Part shown: in pieces, positions 1-62,075 of the stretch | Position numbering within the stretch: position 1 is the stretch's first letter | Layout: each line of letters begins with the position of its first letter | Origin: Mobula hypostoma | Lineage: Eukaryota | Length of the DNA stretch: 64,000 bases | Direction: 5' to 3' | Assembly: GCF_963921235.1 (NCBI RefSeq) | Contig: NC_086108.1 | Span: 83,268,001-83,332,000 of the forward strand | Notes under the pieces: model-generated | The model's input: only the letters and a program-made list of their open reading frames with translations | The model's database searches: none | Told to the model about the DNA's origin: nothing | Position numbers and translations under genes: made by a program

Positions 1-1182
1 ACTTTAGTTTAAAAAAAGGGATATTTTGAAATATATATAAAAATTTTGGTAAAATCATCATTTTAACTGCATGAATTCGGCTGACTAACGAAAGTGTAAG
101 TGCATTCCATCTACAAAGTAATTGTTTCATAAAATCCACTAAAGGAACCAAATTAGCTCTATAAAGGTCTCTATGATTTTTAGTGATAATAATACCTAAA
201 TATTTAAAAGAGTCCGTAACTCTAAAAGGAATGTCATCATATATAGAAGCACAATCATTTAGGGGAAATAATTGACTTTTATGAAGGTTTAGTTTATATC
301 CTGAAAAATTTCCAAATTCATTTAATAGTTTCAATAAACTAGGAATGGATTCGTCAGGATTCGAAACATTATGCTGACGATCTCTTAGTTAAAGGGAGAT
401 CTTATGAATAGTTCCATTTATGAAAATTTCACGGATATCTTTAGCTTCACAAAGTGCAATGGCCAAGGGTTCCAGCACCAAATTAAATAACAAGGGACTT
501 AACAGACATCCTTGTCTCATACCCTGCGGAAGTCCAAAAAAAAAGATCTGCAATTATTAGTAATAACAGTAGCAAAAGGGCTTTTATATATCATTCTAAT
601 CCACTTAAAATTAATACCAAAGTCAAATTTCTCTAAAACATTAAATAAGTATTTCCATTCAACTCTGTCAAGTGCCTTTTCAGCATCAAGAGAAACAACA
701 CATTGGGGAGACTTAGAAAAGGATGAGTTATAACATTTAACAGTCTCCCAGTATTAGAGAAGGAATAACGGCCCTTTACAAAACCTGTTTGGTCCTGAGG
801 GATATTTTAGCTAGAATATTCTCCAGTCGATTAGCCATTATTTTTAAAAGAATTTTAGCATCCACATTTAATAATGAAATAGGTCTATATGAAGCACAGT
901 CAGTTGGGTCTTTATCCTTCTTAAGAATTAAAGAGATAGAAGTTTCATAAAATGTGGGAGGTAACTATCAAAAAAGAATCTTTAAGCGTTTCCAACATGT
1001 ATGGAGAAAGCAATTTTACAAATTTTTTGTAAAATCCTACAGAATAACCAACAAATCCAGGAGCTTTACCAGATTGCATTGAAAGAATAGCTTTCTGAAT
1101 TTTGTTTTCAGTAATTGGAGTATCAAGAGTTTGTTGATCTTCAACAGAAATTTGAGGAAAATCAATCTTTTATAAAAAGGCA

Positions 1183-1359
1183 ACACACATCAAAGTTGCT
1201 GCTGAACGCAGCAGGCCAGGCAGCATCTCTAAGAGGTACAGTCGACGTTTCGGGCCGAGACCCTTCATCAGGACTAACTGAAAGAAGAGCTAGTCTCACC
1301 AGCAACTTTGATGTGTGTTGCTTGAATTTCCAGCATCTGCAGAATTCCTCATGTTTGCA
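1183..1359. mobile_element. Penelope-derived palindromic non-autonomous element inserted in L1
   Basis: Inverted arms caacacacatcaaagttgctg / cagcaactttgatgtgtgttg. TSD ttttataaaaaggca (1168-1182) / ttttgtaaaaaggca (1360-1374). The L1 reading resumes when the insert is removed. Confidence 0.75.
1240..1275 (-). ncRNA. Minimal type I hammerhead ribozyme core
   Basis: AGUC-CUGAUGA-A-GGGU(CUCG)GCCC-GAAAC-GUC-GACU: both core boxes intact, stems I and II pair, stem III reduced to palindromic ACGU. Confidence 0.7.
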
Positions 1360-2468
1360 TTTTGTAAAAAGGCATTCATTTTAGAGGGATCAGCTGAAAA
1401 CTGAGATTTATAAAGTTCAATGTAAAAGTCTTGAAAAATTTTATTAATGTCTTCATAATTACATGCTAAACTACCATCTCCCTTACGAATTTTTAAAATT
1501 TGTCTTTTGGCTCTAGCTGCTTTTAATTGAGATGCTAATAACTTATTATTTTTATCTCCAAACAAATAGAATTGACTTTTCAATTTAAGCAAATTTCTTT
1601 CAATAGGCTAAGTTAATAGTAAATTATATTGTGATTGGAGTTCAACCCTTTGTTTAAATAAATCAATATTAGGTGAGGTTGCATAAATATTATCCAAGTC
1701 TTTAATTTGTTTTGAAATCTTATCTAACTCTGTTTTTGTCTGTTTCTTAAGCTCAGCGAAATAGGAGATTATCTGACCGCGCAAATATGCTTTAAAATGT
1801 GTCCCATATAATCAATTTCGACACATCTCCCGTATTGTTAAATAGAAAACAATCTTTTATCTGAGTCTCAACAAATTTGACAAAGTCTGAACTTTGCAAT
1901 AAATTTTCTGGAAAATGCCAAGGCAAATTTGCAATACCGACATCATTGAATTCAAAAGCTAAGCTTAAAGGCACACGATGCGAAACAATGATAGCTTCAT
2001 ATTCACATTTCTGGACTTTGGACAAAAATCAGAAATCAGCTATAAAATAATTGATTCTCGAATATTTTTTGTGAACATGTGAAAAAAAGAGAATAATCTT
2101 TGTCATTAGGATGTAGGACGCTTTTCAACCAGGCCATAATCCATTAAAAAAAAAGTATCCACACTATCCACAACACCTCCAACCTTTGTGTCATCAGCAA
2201 ATTTTCTAACCCATCCCTCCACTTCTTCATCCAGGTCATTTACAAAAATCACAAAGAGTAGGGGTCCCAGAACAGATTCCTGAGGCACACCACTGGTCAC
2301 TGATGTCCATGCAGAATATGACCCATCTACAAACACTCTTTGCCTTCTGTGGGCAAGCCAGTTCTAGATCCACAAAGCAATCTCTCCTTGGATCCCATGC
2401 CTCCCTACTTTCTCAATAAGCTTTGCATGGGGTACCTTGTCAAATGCTTTGCAGATATCCATATACAC

Positions 2469-2780
2469 ACACTGGGCCGGCTGGTGACGCAACGACATCG
2501 GTGCTGGACCCGGGAGCGGAGGTTCCCAGGTTTGAAACTAGTCGGGTCCGCCCCGCGCACGCTTTCCATCCGGGCCGGGTCGAGTGTCGAGACCACAACT
2601 CGACCTCGTAAAACACGGAAAGACTGTGAAAATGTCTGTGTGAGGAGTGACGCATCGCACAGTCTCTCGCTCTGCGTCGTTAAAAAAGCCATGAAAAATC
2701 CATCATCACAAACGCACGCACGGACACGCAGACGCATATGCACAGATGCGCATGCACGCAGACACACGCAAAAAAAAAAA
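2469..2780 (+). mobile_element. Young tRNA-derived SINE with poly(A) tail
   Basis: GC/CpG-rich head with B-box-like GGTTTGAAAC, (CA/CG)-rich tail and A-tract; TSD atccatatacac (2457-2468) / atccacatacac (2781-2792). Confidence 0.75.
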
Positions 2781-3226
2781 ATCCACATACACTACATCTA
2801 CTGCTTGACCTTCATCAATGTGTTTAGTCACATCCTCAAAAAATTAAATCAGGCTCGTAAGACATGACCTGCCTTTGACAAAGCCATGCTGACTATTCCT
2901 AATCATATTATACTTCTCCAAATGTTCATAAATCCTGCCTCTCAGGATCTTCTCCATTAACTCACCAACCACTGAAGTAAGACTCACTGGCCTATAATTT
3001 CCTGGGCTATCCCTACTCCCTTTCTTGAATAATGGAACAATATCCACAACCCTCTAAGCCTCTGGAACCTCTCCTGTCCCCACTGATGATGCAAAGATCA
3101 TCGCCAGAGGCTCAGCAATCTCCTCCCTCGCCTGCCAAAGTAGCCTAGGGTACATCTCGTCTGGTCCTGGTGACTTATCCAACTTGATACTTTCAAAAGC
3201 TCCTGCACATCCTCTTTCTTAATATC

Positions 3227-6200
3227 ATATAACCATATAACAATTACAGCATGGAAACAGGCTATCTCAGCCCTTCTAGTCTATGCCGAACGCTTACTCT
3301 CACCTAGTCCCACCGACCTACACTCACCCCATAACCCTCCATTCCTTTCCTGTCCATATATCTATCCAATTTAATTTTAAATGACAACATCGAACTTGCC
3401 TCAACCACTTCTACTGGAAGCTCGTTCCACACAGCTACCACCCTCTGAGTAAAGAAGTTCCCCCTCATGTTACCCCTAAACTTTTGCCCCTTAACTCTCA
3501 ACTCATGTCCTCGTTTGAATCTCCCCCATTCTCAATGGAAAAAGCCTATCCACGTCAACTCTATCAATCCCCCTCATAATTTTAAACACCTCCATCAAGT
3601 CCCCCTTCAACCTTCTATGCTCCAAAGAATAAAGACCCAACTTGTTCAACCTTTCTCTGTAACTTAGGAGGTGAAACCCAGGCAACATTTTAGTAAATCT
3701 CCTCTGTACTCTCTCAATTTTATTGACATCTTTCCTATAATTCGGTGACTAGAACTGTACACAATATCCCAAAATTGGCCTTACCAATGCCTTGTACAAT
3801 TTCAACATTACATCCCAACTCCTATACTCAATGCCCTGATTAATAAAGGACAGCATACCAAAAGTTTTCTTCACCACCCTATCCACATGAGATTCCACCT
3901 TCAGGGAACTATGCACCATTATTCCTAGATCCTTCTGTTCTACAGCATTCTTCAATGCCCAACCATTTACCATGTATGTCCTATTTTGATTAGTCCTACC
4001 AAAATGTAGCACCTCACATCTTTCAGCATTAAACTCCATCTGCCATCTTTCAGCCCACTCTTCTAACTGGCCTAAATCTCCCTGCAAGCTTTGAAAACCT
4101 ACTTCATTATCCACAACACCACCTATTTTAGTATCATCTGCATACTTATTAATCCAATTTACCACCCCATCATCCAGATCATTAGTATATATGACAAACA
4201 ACATTGGACCCAGTACAGATCCCTGAGGCACACCGCTACACACCGTCCTCCAATCTGACACACAGTTATCCACCACTGCTCTCTGGCGTCTCCCATCTAG
4301 CCACTGCTGAATCCATTTTACTACTTCGTTATTAATGCCTAATGATTGAACCTTCCTAACTAACCTTCTGTGTGGTACCTTGTCAAAGGCCTTACTGAAG
4401 TCCATATTTTCAACATCCACCACTTTACCCTCGTCAACTTTCCTAGTAACCTCATCAAAAAATTCAATAAGATTTGTCAAACATGACCTTCCACGCACAA
4501 ATCCATGTTGACTGTTCCTAATCAGACCCTGTCTATCCAGGTAATTATATATACCATCCCTAAGAATACTTTCCATCTTTTACCCACCACTGATGTCAAA
4601 CTCACAGGCCGATTAATGCTAGGTTTACTCTTAGAACCCTTTTTAAACAATGGAACCACATGAGCAATACGCCAATCCTCCGGCACCATCCCCGTCTCTA
4701 ATAACATTTGAAATAAATATTTCTGTCAGAGCCCCTGCTATTTCCACACTAACTTCCCTCAAGGTCCTAGGGAATATCTTGTCCGGACCCGGAGACTTAT
4801 CCACTTTTATATTCCTTAAAAGCGCCAGTACTTCCTCTTCTTTAATCGTCATACTTTCCATAACTACCCTTCTTGTTTCCTTTACCTTACACAATTCAAT
4901 ATCCTTCTCCTTAGTGAATACCGAAGAAAAAAAATTGTTCAAATTCTCCCCATCTCTTTTGGCTCCGCACATAGCCGTCCACTCTGATTCTCTAAGGAAC
5001 CAATTTTATCCCTCACTATCCTTTTGCTATTAATATAACTGTAGAAACACTTTGGATTTATTTTCACCTTACTTGCCAAAGCAGCCTCGTATCTTTTAGC
5101 TTTTCTAATTTCTTTCCTAAGATTCTTTTTACATTCTTTATATTCCTCGAGCACCTCATTAACTCCAAGCAGCCTATATTTATTGTAGATCCCTCTCTTT
5201 TTCCGAACCAAGTTTCCTATATCCCTTGAAAACCTTGGCTCTCTCAAACTTTTAACCTTTCCTTTCAACCTAACAGGAACATAAAGATCCTGTACCCTCA
5301 AAATTTCACCTTTAAATGACCTCCATTTCTCTATTACATTCTTCCCATAAAACAAATTGTCCCAATCCACTCCTTCTAAATCCTTTTGCATCTCCACAAA
5401 GTTAGCCTTTCTCCAATCAAAAATCTCAACCCTGGGTCCAGTCCTATCCTTCTCCATAATTATATTGAAACAAATGGTATTGTGATCACTGTAGCTGAAG
5501 TGCTCCCCAACACATACCTCCGTCACCTGCCCTATCTCATTCCCTAACAGGAGATCCAACACTACCCCTTCTCTAGTTAGTACTTCTATGTACTGCTGCA
5601 AAAAACTATCGTGCACACATTTGACAAACTCCAAACTATCCAGCCCTTTTACAGAATGGGCTTCCCGGTCTATGTGTGGAAAATTAAAATCTCCCACAAT
5701 CACAACCTTGCGCTTACTACAAATATCTGCTATCTCCTTACAAATTTGCTCCTCCAGTTCTCGGCCCCCATTAGGTGGTCTATAATACACCTCTATACGC
5801 GTCACTACACCTTTCCTATTCCTCAATTCCACCCAAATAGCCTCCCTAGACGAGCCCTCTAAGCTATCCTGCTAGAGCACCGCTGTAATATTTTCTCTGA
5901 CAAGCAATGCAACACCTCCACCTCTTGCCCCTACTATTCTATCATACCTGAAGCAACAAAATCCCAGAATATAATAGTTGCCAATCACACCCCTCCTGCA
6001 ACCACGTTTCACTAATAGCTAAAACATCATATTTCCAGGTATCAATCCATGCTCTAAGCTCATCCACCTTTCTTACAATGCTCCTGGCATTAAAATAGAT
6101 GCATTTAAGAAACTCTCCACCTCTTACTCTGTTTATCCTTAATGGAGCAAACAACTTTGTTATCTTTTTCTTCCTTGTCCCCTACATCTTTGGTCTGAGT

Positions 6201-19583: not shown

Positions 19584-21192
19584 CAGGTGTCCCCCGCTTT
19601 TCGAACGTTCGCTTTACAAAACCTCACTGTTACGAAAGACCTACATTAGTACCCTGTTTTTGCTTTCAGAAGGTGTTTTCACTGTTACGAAGAAAGGCAG
19701 CGTGTGATAAGAAATCAGCGCGCGATAAAAGGCAGCGCGCGCCCCGAGCAGCCACTCTTTCACGGATTCGGAATGGCATTGCTTTAACACGTTGCATTGA
19801 GCCGCCGTTAGCAAGATGAGTTCTAAGGTGTCGGAAAAGCCTGGAAGAGTAAGGGTGTTACACTTAGCGTAAAACTAGACATAATTAAGCATTTCGATCG
19901 AGGTGAACAAAGTAAGGACAAAGTGAGTTTGGCTGGTGGAAGCTGACGAAGATGATGTTGAAGAGGTTTTGGCATCCCATAACCTAGAACTGATAGATGA
20001 AGAGCTGACGCAATTGGAAGAGGAAAGGATAACAATTGAAACCGAATGCAACCGAATGCAGAAAGTGAAGTAACTGCGTGAGATTTTCGCTGCAATGATA
20101 AAATACGACTTTAATTTTGAAAGGGTACGTAGGTTTAGGGGATATTTGCAGGATGGTTTGAGTGCTTACAAACAAGTGTATGATAGAAAAGTGCGCGAGG
20201 CTCAGCAGTCAAGCAAGCCTTCCACATCAGCCACAGCCGACGACGAACCTCAACCTTCGACATCGAGGCGGGCAGTCATAGGAGAAGATGAGCTGCCTGC
20301 CCTGATCGATGATGAGATGACACCCCCGTGTCCCACCACCCCAACACTTGGGCCCCGGACAGATACTGTACTGATTCACGGAGAATGCAGCAGTAGCCGG
20401 GAGGCACACAGCACATCTTCAAGAAAAAAGCCGAAATAAACATGTTAATTAATTAGGTGCTGCCTAGCACGTAATTGTCGGCCCAGATCAGAGGCAATGC
20501 AATCGGAAATCGCCTCTGATCTGCGCTGACATTTACATGCCGGGCAGCACCTAATTAATTAGCGTGTTTATTTTGGCTTTTTTCTTACCAAGATGAGCTG
20601 GGTGCCTCCCGGCTACCGCTGCATTCTTCGCGGCAATGTATCGGGTCGGCAGCCCGGAGGGTGGGGGCCACTGCACCACCCAGCCTGCAACGACTCAGTC
20701 TAACACACCATCATCAGTGTGCTCGGCGCTGTTTTCCCAATTCCGATAAGTGATACTACACAGTACATACATTATTTCTACTTTATATAGGCTGTGTATT
20801 TTTATGTGTTATTTGGTAGATTTGGCAGCTTCATAATTTAAAGGTTACTGGACAGCGCGTTTATGCCAACAGCGCTTGTGTGAGATTTTCTGCCGAGAGC
20901 GCTTGCGTGAGATTTTTGCTACGGAGATGTGTGCAGGCAATCGTTGTAGAGAAGTATTTCTACTTTATATAGGCTGTGTATTTATCATATCATTCCTGCT
21001 TTAACTATATGTTACTGTTGTTTTCCGTTTTATGTGTTATTTGGCATGATTTGGTAGGTTATTTTTGGGTTTGCGAACGCTCACAAAATTTTCCCATATA
21101 AATAAATGGTAATTGCTTCTTCGCTTTATGACATTTCGGCTTACAAACCGTTTCATAGGAACGCTCTAGCTTCAGATGGCAGGGGAAACCTG
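19584..21192 (+). mobile_element. Tigger/pogo-type DNA transposon, internally deleted
   Basis: TIRs CAGGTGTCCCCCGC / gcaggggaaacctg with TA on both sides; transposase remnants VTLSVKLDIIKHFDRGE (HTH-psq-like) and DVEEVLASHNLELIDEELTQLEEER. Confidence 0.85.
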
Positions 21193-21291
21193 TAAGGAAT
21201 AAAGGTGTAGACTATTTTCCAAATAGGGAGAAAATTCAAAACTCAAGAGGTGTAAGGGGACTTGAGAGTCCCTGTGCATAATTCTGTAAAG

Positions 21292-21635
21292 CAGGGGTCC
21301 CCAACCTCCGGGCGCAGACGGATACTGGGTCGCAAAGCATGCAGGGGTGCAGCGGTAGCTGGGACGCACCCAGCACATCTTTAAGAAAAAAGATTAAATA
21401 AACAAGATAATTAATTAGGTGCCGCTCGGCACGTAAATATCGGCCCAGATCAGAGGCAATTGCCAATTGCGTAAAGCAAGCGAAATCAGCAATCACCTCT
21501 GATCTGGGCCGACATTTATGTGCCGGGCAGCACCTAATTAATTAGCTTGTTTATTTCAGCTTTTTTCTTAAAGATGTGCTGCATGCATCCCGGCTACCAC
21601 TGCACGCTTCACAGCCCGGAGATTGGGGACCACTG
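21292..21635. mobile_element. hAT (Charlie-like) MITE with long internal palindrome
   Basis: TIRs CAGGGGTCCCCAACC / GATTGGGGACCACTG; 8-bp TSD ctgtaaag / ctataaag. Confidence 0.85.
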
Positions 21636-21715
21636 CTATAAAGGATACCTTGCAGGTCGAGTCACTGGCAAGGAAGGACATGGAATGTTAGCATTTATTT
21701 TGAGAAGACTAGAAT

Positions 21716-22105: not shown

Positions 22106-22489
22106 AAAGTATTCATTCCTCCCACCCCCGCTTGGAGGTTTTCATGTTTTATTGGTTTACAACATTGAATCAGTGGATTTAATTTGGCTTTTTTGACACT
22201 GGTCAACAAAAAGTACTTTTTCATGTCAAAGTGAAAATTTCAACAAATTGGTCTAAATTTATTACAATCATTAAACACAAAATATTTGATTGCATAATTA
22301 ATTATCAACCCCCTTCAAGTCAGTATTTAGTAGATGTACCTTTGGCAGCAGTTACAGCCATGAGCCTGTGTGGATATGTCTTTAAAAACGCAAACACGAG
22401 GAAATCTGCAGATGCTGGAAATTCAAGCAAAACACATCAAAGTTGCTGGTGAACACAGCAGGCCAGGCAGCATCTCTAGGAAGAGGTAC

Positions 22490-22525
22490 AGTTGACGTTT
22501 CGGGCCGAGGCCCTTCGTCAGGACT
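22490..22525 (-). ncRNA. Minimal hammerhead ribozyme core (left arm)
   Basis: AGUC-CUGACGA-A-GGGC(CUCG)GCCC-GAAAC-GUC-AACU; one mismatch in stem I. Confidence 0.6.
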
Positions 22526-22576
22526 AACTGAAAGAAGAGCTAGTAAGAGAATCTCTTACTAGCTCTTCTTTCAGTT

Positions 22577-22612
22577 AGTCCTGACGAAAGGTCTCGGCCC
22601 GAAACGTCGACT
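22577..22612 (+). ncRNA. Minimal hammerhead ribozyme core (right arm)
   Basis: AGUC-CUGACGA-A-AGGU(CUCG)GCCC-GAAAC-GUC-GACU; one mismatch at the base of stem II. Confidence 0.6.
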
Positions 22613-22942
22613 GTACCTCATTCTAGAGATGCTGCCTGGTCTGCTGCGTTCACCAGCAACTTTGATGTGTGTTGCTTGGATATGTCTTTATCAGTTTTGC
22701 ACATCTGGACACTCCAATTTTTCCCAGTTCTTCTTTACAAATGGAATCTGTGCAAGCTCTATCAGATTGCCTGGGGATTGTGAATGAACAGCCCTTTTCA
22801 AGTCTGGCCACAAATTCTCAATTGGATTGAGGTCCGGACTGTGACTTGGTCACTCCAGGACATTAACTTTGTTGTTTTTAAGCCATTCCTCTGTAGCTTT
22901 ATGCTTGAGCCTTGCCGGAAAACAAATAGTCTCAAATTGCAG

Positions 22943-27331: not shown

Positions 27332-29007
27332 CTATTAAAGGACAGACATCATTAAACTAGAGAGGGGGTGCAGGACTCAAGGGCCTGAGTTACAGGGTGA
27401 GGGTGAGGGTGCAGGACTCAAGGGCCTGAGTTACAGGGTGAGGGTGAGGGTGAGGGTGGAAAAAAGGTTGAGCAGGCTGGAATGTTACTACTTGGAACGT
27501 AAGAAATTGAGGGGTGACATTAGACATGCACCAGATTGTAAGAGGTAGAGAAGGGGAATTAAAAAACTGGAGAGTATAGGTTTCAGGCAAGAGATGAAAA
27601 ATTTAAAAGGGACTAGAGGGGCAATTTTTTCATGCAAAGGGTTGCGTGTATATGGAATGAGCTGCCAGAGAAAACGGTTGTGGTAGGTCCATTAACAACA
27701 TTTATAACACTTGATTAAGTACAGGGATGGAAGAGTTGAGAGGTATATGAGCCAAACAAGGGCGAATGGTCTAGCTTGGAAGTATCAGGGCCAACATAGA
27801 CATTGGACTAAAGGGCCAATGCTGTATTACTGTATGACTAAATGCCTGAAAGATGAAAATTCCAGATGAGAAAGGCATACGACAGGAGATCTCTCTCATT
27901 TCTCAGGATGTGTTCCTAGGAATGAGGATGCTAAAAGAATCAGTGCTAAAGTAGGTCCTGAGCTCAGTCAAGCTAGGAATCTGCCTCACACTCCTGCCCT
28001 TCCCACCCTACACCAGAAATTTGATTGAGAGCTTAGCCCTTCACTGATGCTATTAAGTGATTAATGGAAAATTATTATTTTGGATCCTCCTAGAACACAA
28101 AAAGAAAATCTGGCTTTTAGATGCTTCACAGTCACATTATAAAATTGTGAATCGATTCATGTTTGCATGTTCTTACTCACCTGCATTTACTCTGGCTTCT
28201 GAACAAAAAGGATGACAAAAATGAAGACAGCACAGAATATACATAAGAATACAAACTGCTGGAGGGACTCAGCATGTCAAGCAACATTTATGGAGACAAA
28301 TAGCTGGACGACATTTGAGTCGAGATCCTGCTTCAAGACAGTTTCAGATTCCCATCTGAAGGCTCTTGCAGTATCAAATTCTATACATGATTTATTTACA
28401 CAATAATATAGGAAAATCATGTTGGATTTATTCTGAATGACATTTAAAAGTGCTACACAACTCCAAAATGTCATGACATTCACCTAACCATTCATGCAAA
28501 GGCTTGCTTGTTTTAAATCATTGCAACATAATACTGTACTGATGCCCACCATTGCTGATTGTAACGGTTTTACAAAATAAAAAAGGGCAAAATATAGCAA
28601 TTAACTATTATCATTTCATTTAATCCAATACCCCTAGGAGGATCTCATACAATGTTTTAGTTTGTCTTGAAATTATTTTCATAAAGTCGATCACCTGGCA
28701 ATGCTGCACTTTTCCTGCCATTAGTTTCTTTTTTCTTTAAGGTGATCTGCTTCATTTGATATATCCCTATTATATTGATTTTTTTTGCATTTCCTTCTGC
28801 CTATTTTTTTTTAATTAAAAAAACTAACCATATCTCCAGCAGATTTTAGTGGTAAAAATGAACAATAAGGAGATTATTGACACATTTCAGATTGCAAGCA
28901 GCTGGCTCAGACTTCCAGAAGCTCTTAGTGATGCAAAAAATAATTAACATAGCTAGAACAATGCAATGCCATATAGGTTAAAAAAAAGGGTACAACAGAC
29001 ATTTTAC

Positions 29008-32109: not shown

Positions 32110-33077
32110 AAATACAAGAGATCAAGCAGGTGCTGGAAATCCAGAGCAACACACACAAAATTCTGGAGGAACTCAGCATGTCAGGTAGCATTTACGGAAA
32201 GGAATAAAGAGCCGGTGTTTTGGGCTGAGATGATGAAGGGTTTGAAATATTGTGGAATATTAGTAGATCAGGTTGGCTATTTGGAAGTTTGGTTGATCGC
32301 TTGGCAAGATGTTTGCAGATGTTTCGGCTCCAATTGAGAAGCCATTATCAGTGCGCAGTTGAGGTTCGTCTCCTCAGAATGCCAGCTTATATACTCCTCC
32401 AGTTTCCGAATGGATATTAATTAGACGCTGTGATTTGGTTGGCTGGTTCAAAACACTGAACAGTTTAGCAGTGAAAGATTCTGACTGGCTAGCTTCAAGG
32501 GAGGTCCATGCAAAAGGCACGACCTACTCTTACTAGTAACAGCACAAGAAAACAAAGGAGGACACCATTTCAACTGGACGACAGCCAGAGACTGTCTCAA
32601 GCAAGAACAAAAAAGAATGAGAATTTCTCAAAGCATGGTTTACTATAGAAGGATTTATCAACGAAAAAAGAGAAACAACAATATCAACAATCAACAGATC
32701 ACCAGTAATCTCGGGATCTGGACAGCGAAGCAAACACTTCCAACTGACCTCCCTTGAAGATGGCCAATCAGAATCTTTTACTGCTAAACTGTTCATGTGT
32801 CTCGAACCAGCCAACCAACCAGATTGCGACACCTAATCAATATCCATTTGGACCCTGGGAGAGTGCATAAACTGGCATTCTGAGCAGACAACACCCTCAA
32901 CTGCGCACTGATGATGGCTTCTCAATTGGTGCCAAAATGTCTGCAAACATTTTGCCAAGCTCAGGCAATCAACCAAACTTTCAAATGATGAAGGGACTTG
33001 GCCTGAAACATCAGCTCTTTATTCCTCTCCATAGATGTTGCCTGACCTGCTGAGTTCCTCCAGCATTTTGTTTGCTT
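32110..33077. mobile_element. Older Penelope-derived palindromic element split by a Penelope insertion
   Basis: Arms 32150-32230 (caaaattctggaggaactcagca...) and 32985-33077 (...tgctgagttcctccagcattttg) are inverted counterparts. Confidence 0.7.
32241..32984 (+). mobile_element. 5'-truncated Penelope-like element: GIY-YIG C-terminal remnant between inverted pLTRs
   Basis: Inverted ~230-bp repeats 32281-32506 / 32746-32984; centre translates with frameshifts to GHHFNW..SQARTK..EFLKAWF..FIN; decayed hammerhead in each repeat; 11-bp TSD atgatgaaggg (32230-32240 / 32985-32995). Confidence 0.75.
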
Positions 33078-33164
33078 TACTCGAAGGTACACTTTAGTTT
33101 TAATTGTGTGGAATACTACTTTGTAAGTCCAAATTTCAGCCCCCAATTCCCAGAAGCAGAACCT

Positions 33165-34926
33165 ATTGGAAACCCTGGGTAATGTAGCCACTTGGGTGAG
33201 GATGTCCTTCAAAGCTAAGTCGTCCAGGTGCATGGTGATCAGAAAGGGCAAAGTTTAGCCTCCAGGTTCAGGGTGAGGTCATCACTTCCATTGAAGATAA
33301 CCCGATAAAATGCTTGGGGAAGTGGTTTAATGTGTCACTGACAGACGGGGCCAATGTCACCAATGCTGTGAAGCTGAAGAAGATCGACAAATCCAGACTT
33401 CCGGGTAAATTCAAGACCTGGCTGTACCAATACGGCATTCTGCCCAGGCTTCTCTGGCTCTTCACACTTTATGAGTTCCCCATGACTGTCGTAGAGGGCA
33501 TTGAGAGGAAAACCAACGAGCATCTGCAGAGATGTTTGGGCGATCCCCCAAGCTTCTCTTCAGTGGGCCTTTACATTTGCTCTGGGCAATTGCAGCTTCC
33601 CCTGTCCTCTGTTGCGGAGGAATTCAAGGTGGCAAAATGCAGAGCTTTATTAAGCTTGAGAGATTCTAATGACGTCTTGGTAAAGCAAGCAGGCGTTACG
33701 ACCAGATCTGGGCGCAAGTGGGCAGCCAACACAGCTGTAGAGCAGGCAGTGTGTTCTCTGAAGCTGCGAGATATCATCGGCAACCCCTGCATCGGGCGAC
33801 AAGGCCTCGGCTCAGTTCACTTCCAGAAGTGGGGAAACGCAAGCATAAGGAACGGGCGAGACATGATACAGGCAGAAGTACAGATCTGTGAGGAAGAGAA
33901 GCGGATTTCAAAGGCAGTGGAGCAAGGGTCCCAGGGTGCCTGGACAAAATGGGATCTGCCTAAGCGCAAGGTCTCATGGGCAGAGTTATGCAGACTGGAA
34001 CCCTTCCGTATTTCCTAACTCTTATGATCCATGTATGACACCCTTCCGTCACCATTACATCTGTACACATGGGTGATTAGAGAGGACCCGAACTGTAAGC
34101 TCTGTGGTCAAAAGGGGACACTGGCTCATATACTGTCCAGGTGTAAAACAGCTCTAATTCAAGGACGGTATAGGTGGCGCCATGATAAGGTGCTTCTGGC
34201 TCTTGCTGACACACTAGAGCGAGAGAGATGCAAGAAGAGAACGGCTGGCACAGATCTGAGGAAGGCCATTACCTTCATCAAAGAGGGCGCTAGGCCTTTC
34301 GTAACCAAACAACCAAAGCCCAATCTGCTGCTAACGGCCAGGTCCTGGGAGATGAAGGTCGATGTGGGAAGGAGGTTGCAGTTCCCGGATGTGGTGCACA
34401 CAACCCTACGCCCGGACATTGTACTGTGGTCAAAGGAAGACAAGAAAATAATTCTGGTTGAGCTGACTGTGCTGTGGGAGGAGGGATGGGAAGAGGCCCA
34501 TGAGAGAAAGGCCTTTAAGTACCAGCCCTTAGTGCAGGAATGTAAAGACAAGGGATGGCTGGCATGGTTGTTCCTTGTGGAGATCGGCTGCAGAGGTTTC
34601 CCAGCCAAATCAGCATGGCGGTTGTTGTCAGATCTGGGCCTGGAGGAAAGGAGCAAAAATCAAGCAGCTCGTAGGATGGGGGAAGAGGCAGAACGAGCTT
34701 CTTGTTGGATTTGGAGTAGGCGAGAGGAGGGGAGCTGGAAGCCAGGAGCAGATGGGCAGTGATTTGGCCACCACTGCCGGCCGACCAACTGGAGAGTGTC
34801 GTGGTTAAGGGTCAAAATACTCGTTTAAGGTTAGGAACCACCTGATGACATCTGCTCCTGGCTGAAGGCTACTGTTACCTTATAAGGTAACTGGAGAATG
34901 CACCCTAACAGGTGTATGTAACAAGT
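33165..34926 (+). mobile_element. HERO-like RLE non-LTR retrotransposon, 5'-truncated copy
   Basis: ORFs 33314..34018 and 34031..34762: CKLC..GTLAHILSRC knuckle, RYRWRHDKVL, LRPDIVLWS...VELTV.WEE (PD-(D/E)xK endonuclease). Confidence 0.85.
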
Positions 34927-37900
34927 TATTTCTGGTTTGTACCAGTGGCTTCCAGGAAAGACTGGATAGCAACGAGGAAGGTCGGTGACACTGGAGAGAC
35001 AGCTGACCACCAGGAAAGACTGGCACGGGCTCACAAGGCTAGCAACCTTGTGGGCAGCACTCGCAAGAGGGCACCACTCAAGCTACGACTGAACACGAAG
35101 AGCAATACCCCCAGAGTCTCCCGGGGGGGGGGGGGTGGAGAGGATGAGAGACTCAACAGGATGGTCATACCGGCAACGGCCAGGACAGGAAACACGACTA
35201 TGAGGAAGCTAAAACAAACAACACTGACCGGAGGAGGAATTCACAGTAAGATGTCATTGCGGGAAAGTCTGCAAAAACATCAGAGGGCTCAAGATACACC
35301 AGAGCAAGTCAGACATGGATCAATGGTGACCCAAGTGCAGCGCACAGACTTAGTGTCCGGTGAGACGAAGGAGAATTCCAGCCGGGAAGCACCCCACAGA
35401 GCTGAAGATCTCTCCACACTTGAGTCGCCTCAGCACCAAACAACAGACCTAGTGAGTTCCTCTTCGGCTACCCCAATCCATTTGTCAAGGAAAGACAGGA
35501 TCAAATGGCCTAGATCATCAGACAATGTCGCGTGGATACAGTTCGATGATGATCTAGATGGCATCCTGGAAGTTGCCTTAGCAGGTCCAGTACACAGAGT
35601 GATCGACTCACTCACAGCCATAGCGTACAATCTAGCTAAGGAATGATTTGGCCCAATGGAGTGGAGAAGCCAGCCCGAGTTACCGCGGCAACCAAATAGG
35701 AGGGAAATGGAGATTCGTCACTTGAGAGGAGAATTAAAGGCACGCAAGAAGAGGTTTAAAACCAGCTCATCGGCCAAAAAAGGTATCAAGGACTTAACCA
35801 GTATGCTGCAGGAAAAGCTGTGCAAACTCCAGAGGGCGGAACATCTGCAACAGCAAAGAAGGAAGAAAGAGAAAAGGCGAGCGCAGTTTGTGAGAGCTCC
35901 ATTCAGCTTCACCAGGACTCTTCTCAGCCAACAAAAATCTGGTATACTATCGAGCTCGAAGCCAGAGGTAGAGGAGTTCCTGCGAGAGGCACACAGTGAC
36001 CCACAGAGGAGTCAGAGACTAGGAACCAATCGGGCTGTGCGTAGACTGGAAAATCCATCAACTGAGCTGAATGTGAAGGAGCCTATATGGCAGGAAATCC
36101 AGGACATCATCAGGAAAGCTAAAGCATCAGCTGCCCCAGGCCCAAGCTGCATACCTTATAAGGTGTATAAGAAATGCCCAAAGTTTCTTCGGAGGCTGTG
36201 GAAGGTCATGAGAAAGATCTGGGCCAAAGGTACTATTCCATCAAGTTGGAAATTGGCAGAGGGATGCTTTATTCCAAAGGAAGAGGCTTCTTCCACAATT
36301 GCCCAGTTTAGGACAATTTCTCTCCTGGATGTGGAATGTAAAATTTTCTTTTCTGTGCTCGCAAGAAGGCTGATTTCTTACATGATGCAGAACCGCTATA
36401 TCAACACATCCATTCGGAAAGGCGGTATTCCAGGCTTTTCGGGGTGTCTGGAGCACACCTCAATGATCAGCCATTTGATCCGTGAGTCAAAGCAGAAAAA
36501 AGGCGACCTAACAGTTGTCTGGTTAGACCTCGTGAACGCCTAGGGGTCTATTCCACATGACCTCATCCGAGAAGGACTTGACCACTACTACATCCAAGTG
36601 GCTATTTGAGACATGTTCATCATCTACCTAGGAGGATTCAAACTCAGATTTACAACTGCCCATTTCACAACTAGTTGGCAGGACCTCCAGAAGAGGATTC
36701 CAACAGGGTGCACCATCTCCTCCATCCTATTTATTATGGGAATGAACCTCCTATTATCAGCAGAACATATAACCCGCGGCCCAACGCTGGAGTCAGGCAT
36801 TGTTCATGGATGACATCATTATAACAACTGTGTCACATGTCCAAGCAAGATGGGTATTGGAAAGCCTGGGTAATGTAGCCACTTGGGCGTGGATGTCCTT
36901 CAAGGCTAAGTCGTCCAGGTGCATGGTGATCAGAAAGGGCAAAGTTACTAGCAAGTTTAGCCTCCAGGTTCAGAGTGAGGTCATCCCTTCCATCGAAGAT
37001 AACCCGATAAAATGCTTGGGGAAGTGGTGAAATGTGTCACTGACAGACGGGGCCAATGTCACCAATGCTGTGAAGCTGAAGAAGATCGACAAATTCAGAC
37101 TTCCGGGTAAATTCAAGACCTGGCTGTACCAATACGGCATTCTGCCCAGGGTTCTCTTGCTCTTCACACTTTATGAGTTCCCCATGACTGTCGTAGAGGG
37201 CATCGAGAGGAAGACCAACAGGCACCTGCGCAGATGGTTGGGAGTTCCCCCAAGCTTCTCTTCAGTGGGCCTCTATATTCGCTCTAGGCAATTGCAGCTT
37301 CCCGTCATCTGTCGCGGAGGAATTCAAGGTGGCAAAATGCAGAGCTTTATTAAGCTTGAGAGATTCTAATGACATCTTGGTAAAGCAAGGAAGTGTTACA
37401 ACCAGATCTGGGTGCAAGTGGGCAGCCAACGCAGCTGTGGAGGAGGCAGTGTGTTCTCTAAAGCTGCAAGATATCATCGGCAACCCCTGCATCGGGCGAC
37501 AAGGCCTCGGCTCAGTTCACTTCCAGAAGTGGGGAAACGCAAGCATAAGGAACAGGCGAGACATGATACAGGCAGAAGTACGGATCCGTGAGGAAGAAAA
37601 GCGGATTTCAAAGGCAGTGGAACAAGGGTCCCAGGGTGCCTGGACAAAATGGGATCTGCCTAAGCGCAAGATCTCATGGGCAGAGTTATGGAGACTGGAG
37701 CCCTTCCGTATTTCCTAACTCTTACGATCCATGTATGACACCTTTCCATCACCATTACATCTGTACACATGGGTGATTAGAGAGGACCCGAACTGTAAGC
37801 TCTGTGGTCAAAAGGGGACACTGGCTCATATACTGTCCAGGTGTAAAACAGCTCTAACTCAAGGATGGTATAGGTGGCACCATGATAAGGTGCTTCTGGC

Positions 37901-38627
37901 TCTTGCTGACACACTAGAGCGAGAGAGATGCAAGAAGAGAACAGCTGGCACAGATTTGAGGAAGGCCATCACCTTCATCAAAGAGGGCACTAGGCCTCTT
38001 GTAACCAAACAACCAAAGCCCAATCTGCTAACGGCCAGGTCCTGGGAGATGAGGGTCGATGTGGGAAGGAGGTTGAAGTTCCCGTATATGGTGCACACAA
38101 CCCTACACCTGGACATTGTACTGCGGTCAACGGAAGACAAGAAAATAATTCTGGTCCAGTTGACTGTGCCGTGGGAAGAGGGATGGGAAGAGGCCCACAA
38201 GAGAAAGGCCTTGAGGTACCAGTCCTTACTGCAGGAGTGTAAAGACAAGGGATGGCAGGCATGTTTGTTCCCTGTGGAGATCGGCTGCAGAGGTTTCCCA
38301 GCCAAATCAGCATGACGGTTGTTGTCAGATCTGGACCTGGACGAAAGGAGCAAAAAAAAAACAAGCAGCTCGTAGGATGGGGGAAAGAGGCAGAACGAGC
38401 TTCTTGTTGGATTTGGAGTAGGCGAGAGGAGGGGAGCTGGAAGCCAGGAGCAGATGGGCAGTGATTTGGCCACCACTGCCGGCCCACCAACTGAAGAATG
38501 TTGTGGTTAAGGGTCGAAACACTCGGTGAAGGTTAGGAACCACCTGATGACATCTGTTCCTGGCTGAAGGCTACGGTTATCTTTAAGGTAACTGGAGAAT
38601 GCACCCTAACGGGTGTATGTAACAAGC
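34927..38627 (+). mobile_element. HERO-like RLE non-LTR retrotransposon, apparently full length but disrupted
   Basis: N-terminal CHCGKVCKN.RGLKIHQ zinc finger (~35250-35305); RT motifs FRTISLL, GIPGFSGCLEH, WLDLVNA, PTGCTIS, FMDD; CCHC knuckle and RLE domain; 3' end ...tgtatgtaacaag. Clade assigned from motif recognition only. Confidence 0.85.
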
Positions 38628-38954
38628 AACTCACATTATATTCGCACTAACCTTCCACACTGATCCCTAGCAACCAAACATTACTAACCCATTGCTTACC
38701 AACTGCCAGAGACAAACTCACTAACAATTCTCGGCAGTCAAGCACTTAATGATTGTCAGCAATAAGTAAACCACTTGCACCACTCTCACTTAACCACCAC
38801 ACCCCTTGCTCCTGAACTTAACTGATGTCATTCAAATACTTTGCAATGGTGGTATGCTGAATAAAAAAATGTATTTTATAATGTAAGGGCTATTCATTAG
38901 AAAATAGTGCCTTAGGAGTTAAAATTAAAATTTTCCAGTACTTGAACTCATTTT

Positions 38955-40748
38955 CAGTGGTGCTAGGAAGTTTGTGAACTCTGTAGAATTTTCTCTATTT
39001 CTGCAGAAATATCACCTAAAATGTGATCACATCTTCACACAAGTCCTAAAAATAAAGAGAACAATTAATAACACAAAAAATTATACTTGCTCATTATTGA
39101 GAAAAGTAATTCACTATTACATTATTTGTTGGAAAAAGTATGTGAACCTTTGTTTTCAGTAACTGGTGTGACCCCTTTGTACAGCAATAACTTCAACTAA
39201 ATGTTTCCTGTAACTGTTGATCAGTCTTGCACATTGACTTGGAGGAATTTTACATCATTCCTCCTTACAAAACTGCTTCAACTCTAGGATGTTGGTGTGC
39301 TTCCACGCATGAACTGCTTGTTTCAGGTCTTCCACAACATTTCTGTAGGATTAAGATCAGAACATTGATTCAGCCATTCAAAAACACAAATTTTCTTCTT
39401 TTTCTATCATTCTGTTGTGGATTTACCCTAGTCTTTCAGACCATTGTCTTGTTGCATTATCCAACTTCTAAGCTTCAGGTGACGGACCGCTACCCTGACA
39501 TTCTCCTGTAAGATGTCTCGATACAATTCTGAATTCATTGTTCCCTCAACAATTGCTAGCTGTCCAGGCCCTAGGCAGCAAAGCAGCCCAGAACCATGAT
39601 GCTCCTTCCACCATGCTTCACAGTTGGGTTGAGGCTTGGGCACGTGGCCAAGTGGTTAAGGCTTTCATCTAGTGATTTGAAGGTCGCTGGTTCGAGTCTC
39701 AGCTGTGGCAGCGTGCTTGTGTCCTTGAGCAAGGCACTTAACCACACATTGCTCTAGTGTCCGTGCAGCACACAGACTTCCAATCTGTGCCTTGTAAGGC
39801 ATGAAAATGCCCAATGCAGGCCTCTTAAGGTCTGAGTCAACGTTCCCTCCCCACCTCCTTAGGCATTGGTGTGCAGTGCCCTTCATCCTCCAAAAATAGT
39901 ATAGATTTCTGACAAAAAGTTTAAATTTTGTCTCATCTGTCTACAGAACATTGTTCCCAAAGTGTTGTAGAACATCTAGGTGGTCTTTCGCAAACTTGAA
40001 ATGTGCAGCAATGTTTTTATTTTTGGAGAGCAGTGGTTTCTTCCATAGTGTCCTTCCATGAACACCCTTCTTGTTCAGTGTTTTTCTTATAGTGGACACA
40101 TGAACAGGGACTTCTAGAGGTTTCTGCAGGTCTTTTGCTGTTACCCTTGGGCTCTTTTTCCACTTTCTTCAGCATTGCACATTGTGCTCTTGGTGTGATC
40201 TTTGTAGGCTGCCCACTCGTAGGGAGATAGCAATGGTACCAAGTTTCCTCCATTTGTACACAATTCCTCTTACTGTGGACTAATAAACACTCAGGTCTTT
40301 AGAAATGCCCTTGTAGCCTTTTCCAGCTTCAGGCATCTCCACAATTCTTATTCTTCTGTTTTGATCAAGGAATGGTGCACATAAACAGATCTTTCTTGAG
40401 AAGATCAGGTTCTGTCAGTAACGTGACTTTGTGTGTCTTTTTATTTATATAGGGCAGGGCACCTCTACAACCCACACCTCCAATCTCATCTCATTGATTG
40501 GAATACTTGACTCCAAATAGCTTTGTAGGAGACATTACCCCAGAGGTTCACATGCTTTTTCCAACAAATACATGTAATATTGGATCATTTTTCTCAATAA
40601 ATAAGAATAACGTTTTTGTGTCATTTATTTAAGTGGGTTCACTTTATCTAGTTTTAGGACTTGCGTAAAGATCTGATCACATTTTAGATCATATTTATGC
40701 AGAAATAGAGAAAATTCTACAAGGTTCACAAACTTTCTAGCACCACTG
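38955..40748 (-). mobile_element. Tc1-like DNA transposon, defective
   Basis: TIRs cagtggtgctaggaagtttgtgaac / gttcacaaactttctagcaccactg followed by TA; transposase remnants LPTSGQPTKITPRAQ and WIMQQDN. Confidence 0.88.
39638..39858 (+). mobile_element. tRNA-derived SINE with CORE-like segment, inserted in Tc1
   Basis: A box tggccaagtgg, B box ggttcgagtc, then tgtgtccttgagcaaggcacttaacc. Confidence 0.8.
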
Positions 40749-41419
40749 TATATTTATTTCACAATACATTTACAATAGGATTAGTCAAAAGTTACATTAG
40801 ATTTAGCAAAATCACTTAAGATGGTGAACGACTTTCAGTTATGTCTATTAATTTTTCAAGCTCTGGTTTAGACAGTGAGCAATGCATCAAACCTTACATT
40901 CTATCTGGAACAAATGACTTTTTATATATAGATATTTATCAAGCAAATATTCTAATACAATAGCAGAAATACTTGCTTAGGAACAGATCTGTTACTGTCA
41001 CAAGCTATTACTGGAAGAAATGATAAATTACAATAATTACAAAAGATACAAGTCTGATGAGGGGATGAATGAATACGTTTAACATTACCAAACACTCCTG
41101 TAATGAAGTATCTGCTTGATGACACAGACAATATCAAATTTGAGCAACATCACCTAAAGCCCAAAATTACCCAGAAATTATGTGATGATTACTTTTCTCC
41201 CCCAATGTGTAACATAAATTTGATGTGGTTAAGTTGTAGATGTTAGCTAATTTAATACCAGAGCTTTCTATGCATCTCCTGAAACCGTCTATAAAAGGAG
41301 GGAGAAAGCAATGAGTACAAATTTCTAAGGAGACACGTGCCTCTAAGCAAAAAAATATGTAGCGTTTGATTTAATGTAAACAAGAGAACTAAGTGAAAGC
41401 TAATTTATAACATTACATC

Positions 41420-41577
41420 AGGATGCCACAGTAGCTTAGTGGTTAACACAGTGCTATTACAGCTCAAGGCATCGGAATTCAGAGTTTAATACCAGCACCA
41501 TCTTTAAGGAGTTTGTACATTGTCCCCACATTGCATGTGTTTCCTCCAGGTGCTCCGATTTCCTCCCACATTTCAAA
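41420..41577 (+). mobile_element. HE1/V-type SINE fragment
   Basis: A-box-like tagcttagtgg; V-domain-like gtttcctccaggtgctccgatttcctcccaca. Confidence 0.7.
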
Positions 41578-42236
41578 TCGCCTCAAACTCCTAATGGAGT
41601 ATAACTGATGACATGCCTTTTTAATAATTGCATCAATATAGATCCTCCCTGGCCCTGTTGAAGGTTATGCTTCATCCACACATTTGACTCTATTCCAGTC
41701 ATGCTCCATCAGTACACCTGCCCGTGGTATGACAATTGGCAGACATACTCCACCAACTTTGCAAATGACTAACACTGGTCTAGAGAATCTGAGGTTGTAG
41801 AGAAGGTTGAACAAATATTAAGGAGAGATGTACCGACTATTTGTGTGCTTAGATGAGTAAATAGAGAAAGTGTGCCAATTAATAAGATCCAAACCTGTTC
41901 CTAAGTATTTCTGCTATTGTATTAGAATATTTGCTTGATAATCAACCATATACAGAAAGTAATTTGTTTCAGATAGAATGTAAGGTTTGATGCATTGCTC
42001 ACTGTCCAAACCAGAGTATGAAAGAATGATTGACATAACTGAAAATCATTCACCACCTTCAAGTGATTTTGCTAAATCTAATGTAACTTGACTAATTCTG
42101 TTGTAAATATATTGTAAAATGAATATAAATGAATTCAAGTGGCTGGAAAAATTAATTTCAACTCCTAAAGCATTTTTTACGAATGAAAAGCCCTTGAATT
42201 TTTTTTATTCAGCACACCACCATTGTCAACATAAAA

Positions 42237-50999: not shown

Positions 51000-51480
51000 C
51001 CTACGTATAACAGATGCTCAACTAAAAACAGACTAAATAAACTCATCAAAAAGGCTGGATCCACCCTTGGCTACAACCTGGACTCTTTTGAGTTAGTGGT
51101 AGGGAGGAGGCCACTAAAGAAACTGTTATCCATTATGGACAATGAGGAACATCCTCTCCATAACCTACTGAATAAACAGTGGAGCACCCTTTAGAACAGG
51201 CTCATTCAGCTCTGCTGTTACAAGGATCGTTACAAAAAATCTTTCCTACAAAATGCAATAAGCATATACAACAGTTCATCTCTGTGCGACAGGAGAACAC
51301 AGAGTGCAATAGTCTCTGTTTTATTACTTCGTACATTATTGCACAGTAGTTCACATTGTAAATTAGTGTATATTATTCTGTACTTTATTAGTTAATATTA
51401 TTATATTTATTATTGCTAAGTGTATTTTTAAATGTTGCTGATGTAACAAAATGACTTCCCACTGGGGATCAATAAAGTTA
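51000..51480 (+). mobile_element. Rex1/Babar-like 3' fragment
   Basis: RLNKLIKKAGS...KLLSIMDN..HPLH; tail ggggatcaataaagt. Confidence 0.7.
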
Positions 51481-51796
51481 GTATTATTAACTTGCGAGTT
51501 TCCAACTGTTCAACATGTTTCACCTGAATGGAATTTTGTTTGTAATGATTATATTCATTACATCAACATGGCAATCGAATAATAAAATCAAATGCAAAGA
51601 TGATACAGATAGGCTTGAGGGACAGAGGATTAACAAAGTTAGTATTATTAACTTGCGAGTTTCCAACTGTTCAACATGTTTCACCTGAATGGAATTTTGT
51701 TTGTAATGATTATATTCATTACATCAACATGGCAATCGAATAATAAAATCAAATGCAAAGATGATACAGATAGGCTTGAGGGACAGAGGATTAACA
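51474..51796. repeat. 161-bp direct tandem duplication, two apparently identical copies
   Basis: gtattattaacttgcgag at 51481 and 51642; ...ggattaaca ends at 51635 and 51796. Confidence 0.92.
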
Positions 51797-59019: not shown

Positions 59020-59272
59020 AAAACAGATACAGAATGGAATAGGCCCTTCCAGCCGCACCGCCCAGCAACCCCCAACAACCCTGATTTAACCTTAGCCTAA
59101 TTACCAATTTACCTACCCGATACATCTTTGGCCTGTGGGATGAAACTGGAGGGCCCAGAGAAAACCCACACATTCCACAGGAGGACGTACGGAGGACACC
59201 AGAATTGAACTCCAAGTTCCAATGCCCCGAGCAGTAATAACACCCCGATAACTGCTATGCTGCTGTGCACCC
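59020..59272 (-). mobile_element. HE1/V-type SINE inserted in a decayed palindromic element (~58900-59385)
   Basis: Minus strand has B box ggagttcaattc and V-domain-like tgtgggttttctctgggccctccagtttcatcccaca. Confidence 0.75.
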
Positions 59273-59400
59273 AGGTTTAACACATCAGGTTCAGGACCCT
59301 TCCTCATGATCACACATTTACCATTTCTTTCCACAGATATTGCCTGACTTGCTGAGTATTTCCAGCATTTTCCGTTTTTAATTCACTTTGTGATCTAATC

Positions 59401-61773: not shown

Positions 61774-61932
61774 ACCTAACCTGAAGTACAGCAATGAATA
61801 TCTATTTTTGGGACAAATAAGACAATATCATCTGATACCAATCCACATGTATAATTCCTGTTTACTAACCAGTTGTATTTTACAGAATATACAGAGTTTA
61901 GTTTACAGAATTGACAAAGTCATGTAATCAAA

Positions 61933-62075
61933 CGACAAACAAGAGAAAATCTGCAGATGCTAGAAATCCAAGCAACATAGACAAAATGCTGGAGGAACTC
62001 TGCAGGCCAGGCGGCCTCTGTGGAAAAAAGTACAGTCGACGTTTCGGGCTGAAACCCTTCAGCAGGACTCAGGAT
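61933..62075 (-). mobile_element. Single arm of a Penelope-derived element with a variant hammerhead core (62034-62069)
   Basis: Same arm family as 22385-22530; minus strand AGUC-CUGCUGA-A-GGGU(UUCA)GCCC-GAAAC-GUC-GACU. Confidence 0.7.

Follow-up and report, generated by a model that had tools for sequence, protein, structure and literature searches.

A 292-bp fold-back insert with two minimal hammerhead motifs in Mobula hypostoma, very probably a dead and truncated Penelope-like insertion

In the 64-kb window (the whole stretch of DNA analysed here), the insert at 22385-22676 is 292 bp long and is flanked on both sides by exact 14-bp direct repeats, the TSD copies at 22371-22384 and 22677-22690, which are identical over 14 bp. 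Two inverted arms of 130 nt, 22421-22550 and 22552-22681, share 93% identity and lie 1 nt apart, and a one-sided extension of 36 bp (22385-22420) is located at the left end, beyond the palindrome. The original prediction had described an exact 14-bp TSD and a near-perfect palindrome with a 1-nt centre, both of which are confirmed here; its unique leader of about 40 bp is indeed a one-sided extension, but it measures 36 bp and is not unique, as three other copies in the window have it. The sense strands of both arms point away from the centre, which is a head-to-head arrangement, and the insert contains no ORF. The RNA of the insert folds as a single hairpin (-247.8 kcal/mol, z -28.5), and none of 100 shuffles is as stable. 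The flank around the insert is presumably, by its appearance, a Tc1-type remnant; the left flank has only a partial paralogue within the window, and in the search for an empty site no window paralogue crosses the insertion point. For a 55-codon open frame that spans the left arm and the tail, none of 62 candidates was a longer homologue. The features of the insert are:

22371..22384, plus strand: TSD, left copy, 14 bp; an exact repeat whose last 4 bases also match the family terminus
22385..22420, minus strand: one-sided tail, 36 bp, outside the inverted arms; common to the copies at 1323-1363, 61930-61966 and 32110-32143
22421..22550, sense on the minus strand: left arm, read as a 5'-truncated pLTR fragment from the inverted-repeat match and the majority letters of the runs
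22489..22525, minus strand: minimal type I hammerhead of the left arm, predicted cut between 22494 and 22493
22550..22551, no strand: head-to-head junction, placed by comparing the sequence with the family continuation behind 22550
22552..22676, sense on the plus strand: right arm, read as a 5'-truncated pLTR fragment without tail from the inverted-repeat match
22577..22612, plus strand: minimal type I hammerhead of the right arm, predicted cut 3' of 22608
22677..22690, plus strand: TSD, right copy, in which the first 2-5 bases agree with the continuation of the element itself

The two arms mismatch at 9 places, 1 of these within the TSD. Compared with the majority letter in public sequencing runs, the left arm has 4 private changes (22431, 22455, 22493 and 22510), while the right arm has 4 changes (22589, 22620, 22622 and 22640) if the left arm represents the family state; the copy at 1183 sides with the left arm at 22589 and 22640, the two of these right-arm sites that are aligned gap-free. 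The match between the arms extends 5 nt into the right TSD, and the C variant at 22423, which completes the 5-nt match to the TSD, accounts for 17% of depth in run X1. We infer that the match of 2-5 bases at the right TSD is a priming microhomology. At the junction, the arms end no more than 1-2 nt from the same family position, with a 1-nt overlap, and an untemplated base is unnecessary.

The core CUGACGA-A-stemII-GAAAC-GUC, claimed for each arm together with an ACGU stem III, was found at 22581-22608 (+) and 22521-22494 (-). Each arm contains a type I hammerhead core with an additional A, a 4-bp stem II and a stem III shrunk to ACGU, and both arms show the core of minimal hammerheads of Penelope-like elements (PLEs), namely CUGANGA, GAAA, NUH, the extra base after A9 and the palindromic 15.2-16.2. 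The assignment to the minimal, dimer-type type I hammerheads is borne out, and the predicted cut 3' of 22608 is correctly positioned. Stem II had been said to vary while mostly keeping its pairing; this overlooked mispairs in both focal motifs. The right-arm stem II is AGGU/GCCC, with pair 10.1-11.1 an A-C broken by the change at 22589; the left-arm stem II, GGGC/GCCC, is intact, and the first stem I pair is a C-A broken by the change at 22493. The combination of G10.1-C11.1 with intact stems I and II is absent from both focal arms and present in the copy at 1246-1271. Among the 7 window arms that overlap the motif, the core is intact in 3, and all 8 pairs are also intact in 1 (1246-1271). To judge from the sequence, the hammerheads of the 22371-22690 copy are probably inactive, with a broken core-flanking pair in each.

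Folding of the full transcript of either strand gave probabilities of 0.0 for all hammerhead stems, and in either direction of transcription the complementary arm is transcribed first; in this model both hammerheads would be wholly trapped in the hairpin. Since no transcript of the insert holds two sense motifs, a dimer fold is possible only between molecules. The proposed sense motif with its complement in either transcript is thus found, and the antisense trap follows from this geometry, but its reading as a selected function is without support. The hammerheads are passengers of the pLTR. A hammerhead search and a covariation analysis of the copies had also been proposed. The Rfam search of the 64-kb window gave no hammerhead match at E up to 5, which says little because these are minimal motifs without stem III; stem covariation among the window copies is not above that of shuffles, 50 of 500 of which attain the score, and is not significant. 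A pyrimidine run ending in CAG is located a few bases 5' of stem I in both arms (22562-22574 on the plus strand, 22528-22540 on the minus strand), and a second subfamily in the public runs has a comparable run 5' of stem I. In its letters the run with CAG may resemble a 3' splice site; in the Penelope of D. virilis, the intron end maps to the 5' end of helix I (PMC4209133).

Related arms had been listed at five further places in the window. Those at 1183-1359, 32110-33077 and 61933-62075 are clear (1177-1362, 32113-32229/32985-33090 and 61936-62071; nhmmer E 1e-27 to 1e-7), while those near 28250-28340 and 58900-59385 are only weak, namely 28253-28340 (nhmmer E 0.024) and 58915-59367 (nhmmer E 1.9-2.5), the latter forming a 58-nt inverted pair of 79%. 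The region 58935-59385 holds an old, diverged pair of inverted arms from a related subfamily; the pair encloses about 335 bp of other sequence, and its hammerhead is gone. The clear copies are:

1168..1374, no strand: second insertion of the same subfamily, with a 15-bp TSD (14/15) and an asymmetric inversion point unlike that of the focal copy
32110..33085, no strand: older related two-armed insertion, with its centre at the hammerhead core and interrupted by an insertion of another family
61930..62075, minus strand: single-armed tailed copy of a related subfamily, with C, not A, at core position 6

The copy at 1168-1374 has the same tail as the focal copy and consists of an untailed arm of 113 nt (1183-1295) with the intact hammerhead and a short tailed arm (1296-1359), and its junction lies off symmetry by about 92 nt. 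The untailed arm extends beyond the tailed arm and therefore is no copy of the tailed cDNA, barring later deletion. TSD lengths vary between 14 bp in the focal insert and 15 bp in this copy, and the three two-armed window copies have no common centre. No head-to-tail tandem unit was found among the window copies. Both target sites, 1168-1182 and 22371-22384, resemble the element's own A/T-rich tail-end terminus, which suggests that cutting or priming may prefer self-like sequence.

A second two-armed family is present at 32241-32984, with an 11-bp TSD, a 40-bp one-sided tail and a different, decayed hammerhead-like motif. Its arms (32281-32506 and 32746-32984) lie within 32230-32995, and it is inserted exactly into the hammerhead core of the older first-family copy. 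We take the middle of this insert (32507-32745) to resemble a frameshifted C-terminus of a Penelope endonuclease, but Pfam, phmmer (4 matches, all to unrelated repeat proteins) and tblastx/blastx did not confirm it. The window contains several other repeats. Two copies of another near-palindromic family (83% self-complementary), at 20379-20630 and 21281-21646, are the source of weak Rfam microRNA matches, and the ends of the copy at 21281-21646 resemble hAT-type terminal repeats. A direct duplication of 1.8 kb (33164-34925 and 36855-38626; 93%) carries the broken 3' half of a non-LTR retroelement with a weak zf-RVT match, and more RT-like frames lie at 34909-36543. The adjacent elements at 38950-40753 and 40749-42127, with terminal inverted repeats of 105-157 nt or more (about 88%), are probably, as we assume, Tc1-like. 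A 161-bp tandem duplication with 99% identity is found at 51466-51796.

To examine the family outside the window, one arm together with the left flank (22150-22551; the only flank contained in the compared stretch) was matched to contigs of 4 of 24 listed public runs. As a result, 81,745 contigs of X1 match the arm and left flank, so that the great abundance claimed for the element is borne out. The depth is 5.8-11.3 million over the arm and at most 0.31 million over the repetitive flank, and it is not to be read as copy number; X15 is an RNA run by guess only and is not counted as evidence of expression. In all four runs the family continues past 22550 into G-rich, non-mirror sequence (406, 279, 93 and 38 contigs), and the centre is therefore a truncation point rather than a family end. 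In these runs, another subfamily diverges at 22525. At the tail end, heterogeneous flanks attach at 22381 and 22391-22392, which makes this end the family terminus, and the alignments of other copies extend to 22381, beyond which their flanks differ (387, 388 and 31 contigs in X1, X5 and X15). The joints and loose ends come from 15 of 62 joints and 24 of 1427 loose-end rows; strand switches make up 5 of the 15 joints listed (of 62), at 5 different place pairs and with one contig each per run, and contigs represent symmetric palindromes poorly. Because the family continues past the centre and inversion points differ by copy, each fold-back looks as if it was made at insertion, copy by copy. The distinct ORF-less family of fold-backs that had been proposed is not supported, since the centre is no family boundary and the inversion points vary among copies. 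A tail with an inverted truncated copy and a TSD is moreover the described by-product of PLE insertion (PMC8557442, PMC3846280).

The family-specific pattern has no match in viral or metagenome contigs, whereas a relaxed motif scan of metagenome contigs gave at least 120 loci, which share only the motif with the focal family (best BLAST E 3e-4, among the matches listed). Among the 99 distinct contexts of the matches listed, stem I pairs 1-4 are Watson-Crick in 82, 82, 64 and 53 (shuffle maxima 54, 44, 43 and 42), and stem II pair 3 is Watson-Crick in 80 (shuffle maximum 46). This covariation across families concerns the pairs not fixed by the pattern and was compared with 2000 shuffles; the rows include relatives, so that it carries no formal probability. 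Among the 120 loci of the matches listed, 31 match one of 8 PLE-type proteins, and in 23 of these 31 (on 22 contigs) the motif follows the protein match on the same strand, 82-257 nt downstream. Locus L007 has a 595-residue frame with RVT_1 (E 5e-5) and GIY-YIG (E 1e-3), both below the Pfam curated cut-offs, and this frame is flanked by inverted motif-bearing repeats; GIY-YIG attains the curated cut-off in 5 other loci, among 10 frames scanned. In L068, a 1049-codon RT and GIY-YIG frame (260-3406) passes through the hammerhead motif and reads the ATG of CUGAUGA in phase, similar to the ORF of PAc that starts within its hammerhead.

An inverted repeat lies near the motif in 23 loci, among the matches listed. 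We tested 18 of them, leaving out L008 (on the contig of L007), L026 (a short hairpin off the motif) and L044, L075 and L119 (too near the locus end). Among the matches listed, an exact repeat of at least 8 bases with a one-sided tail of 24-56 nt is present in 10 of the 18 inverted loci and at 10 of 300 random positions, and with a repeat of at least 10 bases in 7 of 18 and 2 of 300; this geometry of TSD and tail was fixed after viewing the loci, and the match of L037 is doubtful. The motif and the architecture are thus tied to RT/GIY-YIG coding sequence in other animals' DNA. The claimed Penelope-like origin is supported by the one-sided tail, the TSD, the head-to-head truncated arms and the position of the motif near RT/GIY-YIG sequence elsewhere. 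A search for an autonomous Penelope with the same terminus had also been proposed, but RT or GIY-YIG joined to the focal terminus was found neither in the window nor by protein search, and tblastn of 8 and of 120 PLE-type proteins gave no credible match to RT/GIY-YIG in the 64-kb window. Such an autonomous partner for the focal terminus would nevertheless have acted.

The architecture agrees with published PLE insertions. According to the sources in the parts consulted, these commonly show an inverted 5'-truncated copy and a one-sided tail of 30-40 bp (Craig et al. 2021, PMC8557442; the same tail length in PMC11167929), inverted pLTRs and 3' extensions are listed as PLE traits (PMC8969392), and Pen2a_Av of Adineta vaga has inverted pLTRs, a tail and an 8-10-bp TSD, for which self-priming was proposed (PMC3846280). 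PMC6155905 is a review. The focal insert shares with them the head-to-head 5'-truncated copy, the one-sided tail, the TSD and the junction palindrome (PMC8557442, PMC3846280), and of the traits of EN+ PLE insertions it shows a one-sided 36-bp tail, variable 5' truncation with an inverted copy and a TSD of variable length. It differs from the rotifer insertions in being truncated to no ORF and in its TSD of 14 bp instead of 8-10 bp (PMC3846280). Minimal hammerheads in PLE end repeats are described as mostly dispersed, inactive as monomers and weak as dimers, and dual hammerheads on opposite strands 100-700 bp apart are known from Schistosoma (Cervera and De la Pena 2014, PMC4209133). With the metazoan PLE hammerheads of that paper the focal motifs have in common the type I core, the extra base after A9, the palindromic 15.2-16.2 without a stem III loop and the 4-bp stem I; the focal stem II is only 4 bp, and a core-flanking pair is broken in both focal motifs. 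Cartilaginous fishes are not named in the consulted text of PMC4209133, and that of the manta-ray genome preprint has no occurrence of 'Penelope'. We found no paper on the focal family in the literature searched; Repbase, Dfam and supplements, which stood outside this search, may list it.

We conclude that the insert is very probably a single dead copy of an abundant Penelope-like family, inserted with an extreme 5' truncation that left only pLTR sequence. The PAc element (Poseidon, Anolis carolinensis) is a related system: its protein cuts and extends both strands, two RT starts define the tail, and its hammerhead depends on the protein but is not required for insertion in vitro (Frangieh et al. 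2024, PMC11167929). Both PAc and the focal insert have AT-rich targets and the one-sided tail expected from two RT starts, whereas PAc primes without target homology and the focal insert has short matches at both ends (PMC11167929). The GIY-YIG endonuclease of the element would make staggered nicks in the two target strands, 14 bp from each other. With pLTR RNA as template (two pLTR templates), reverse transcription would then be primed by both 3' target ends, by one of them at the tail end and by the other about 36-41 nt inside, each aided by a few matching bases. The two short cDNAs would each stop some 30 nt upstream of the hammerhead core and would be joined head to head by end joining. 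Each cDNA strand begins at an outer edge of the insert and proceeds inward, and the duplicated 14-mer is part of both target 3' ends, which fits a staggered cut that leaves 3' overhangs; 4 bases at the tail end and 2-5 bases at the untailed end agree with the TSD. A stall at a branch point was considered as the origin of the centre and dropped, since the arms extend several bases beyond the candidate A.

Priming from both ends followed by end joining appears roughly twice as likely as self-priming, in which one nascent strand of the same PLE origin folds back; this rival, which concerns the mechanism step only, is possible and the less probable of the two. The near-perfect symmetry of the focal centre, to 1-2 nt, is a point in its favour and the main one against two-ended priming, since two truncations independent of each other would be less expected to give so symmetric a centre. 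Near-symmetric centres also occur in L076, L080, L100, L085 and L101 (5-23 nt gaps), core position 7 is identical in the two arms, although the letter found there is also that of the majority (87% in X1), and self-priming was proposed for rotifer Penelopes, there on the antisense template (PMC3846280). However, a 1-nt loop cannot form directly, the tail of the 1168-1374 copy sits on the short arm, target microhomology is present at both outer ends, and PAc extends both strands in vitro (PMC11167929). The asymmetry of the 1168-1374 copy supports two-ended priming, unless its centre was lost later.

The other explanations differ about the nature of the element. That the insert is an ORF-less fold-back, replicating as a unit, mobilised by Penelope proteins and with an antisense trap controlling the ribozyme, is improbable: the absence of an ORF, the great abundance of the family, the existence of non-autonomous hammerhead derivatives of PLEs (retrozymes, bioRxiv 10.64898/2026.07.22.740005) and the sufficiency of pLTRs for mobilisation in trans (PMC3846280) would fit, but the three two-armed window copies differ in centre, family sequence runs beyond the centre, the arms decayed independently, each motif losing a core-flanking pair, and retrozymes are head-to-tail tandems. 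In the consulted text, animal non-LTR retrozymes are such head-to-tail derivatives, one of the genomes being chondrichthyan; like the focal insert they are non-coding, derived from pLTRs and equipped with type I hammerheads, but theirs are able to form a dimeric ribozyme, whereas the focal insert is head-to-head (bioRxiv 10.64898/2026.07.22.740005) and lacks head-to-tail units with a hammerhead in each. Still less credible is a palindromic MITE of a DNA transposon carrying a hammerhead-like motif by chance. It would account for the long inverted repeat, the short non-coding insert and the TSD; inverted repeats at both termini and a TSD of fixed length are, however, absent, since the inverted repeat stops 36 bp (the tail) short of one end and the TSD is 14 or 15 bp. 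Single-armed and asymmetric copies also exist, across families the motif shows covariation, and it is located behind RT/GIY-YIG sequence. There is a slim chance that some fold-back copies were re-transcribed and re-mobilised as a unit, giving a MITE-like subfamily in which the centre, some 30 nt upstream of the hammerhead, is fixed; its hairpin RNA would keep the ribozyme sequestered and could be a source for small-RNA silencing of the parent family.

In the truncated Penelope-like insertion, the insertion pattern and the ribozyme motif are both known, and it does not represent a new kind of mobile element. Taken as one locus, it is of small weight, a tidy example of a published pattern. The origin of PLE head-to-head inversions is unsettled between self-priming on an antisense template and priming from both cut ends, and a family as abundant as this one would supply many junctions for deciding between them. 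Hairpins of this kind may also give rise to double-stranded RNA.
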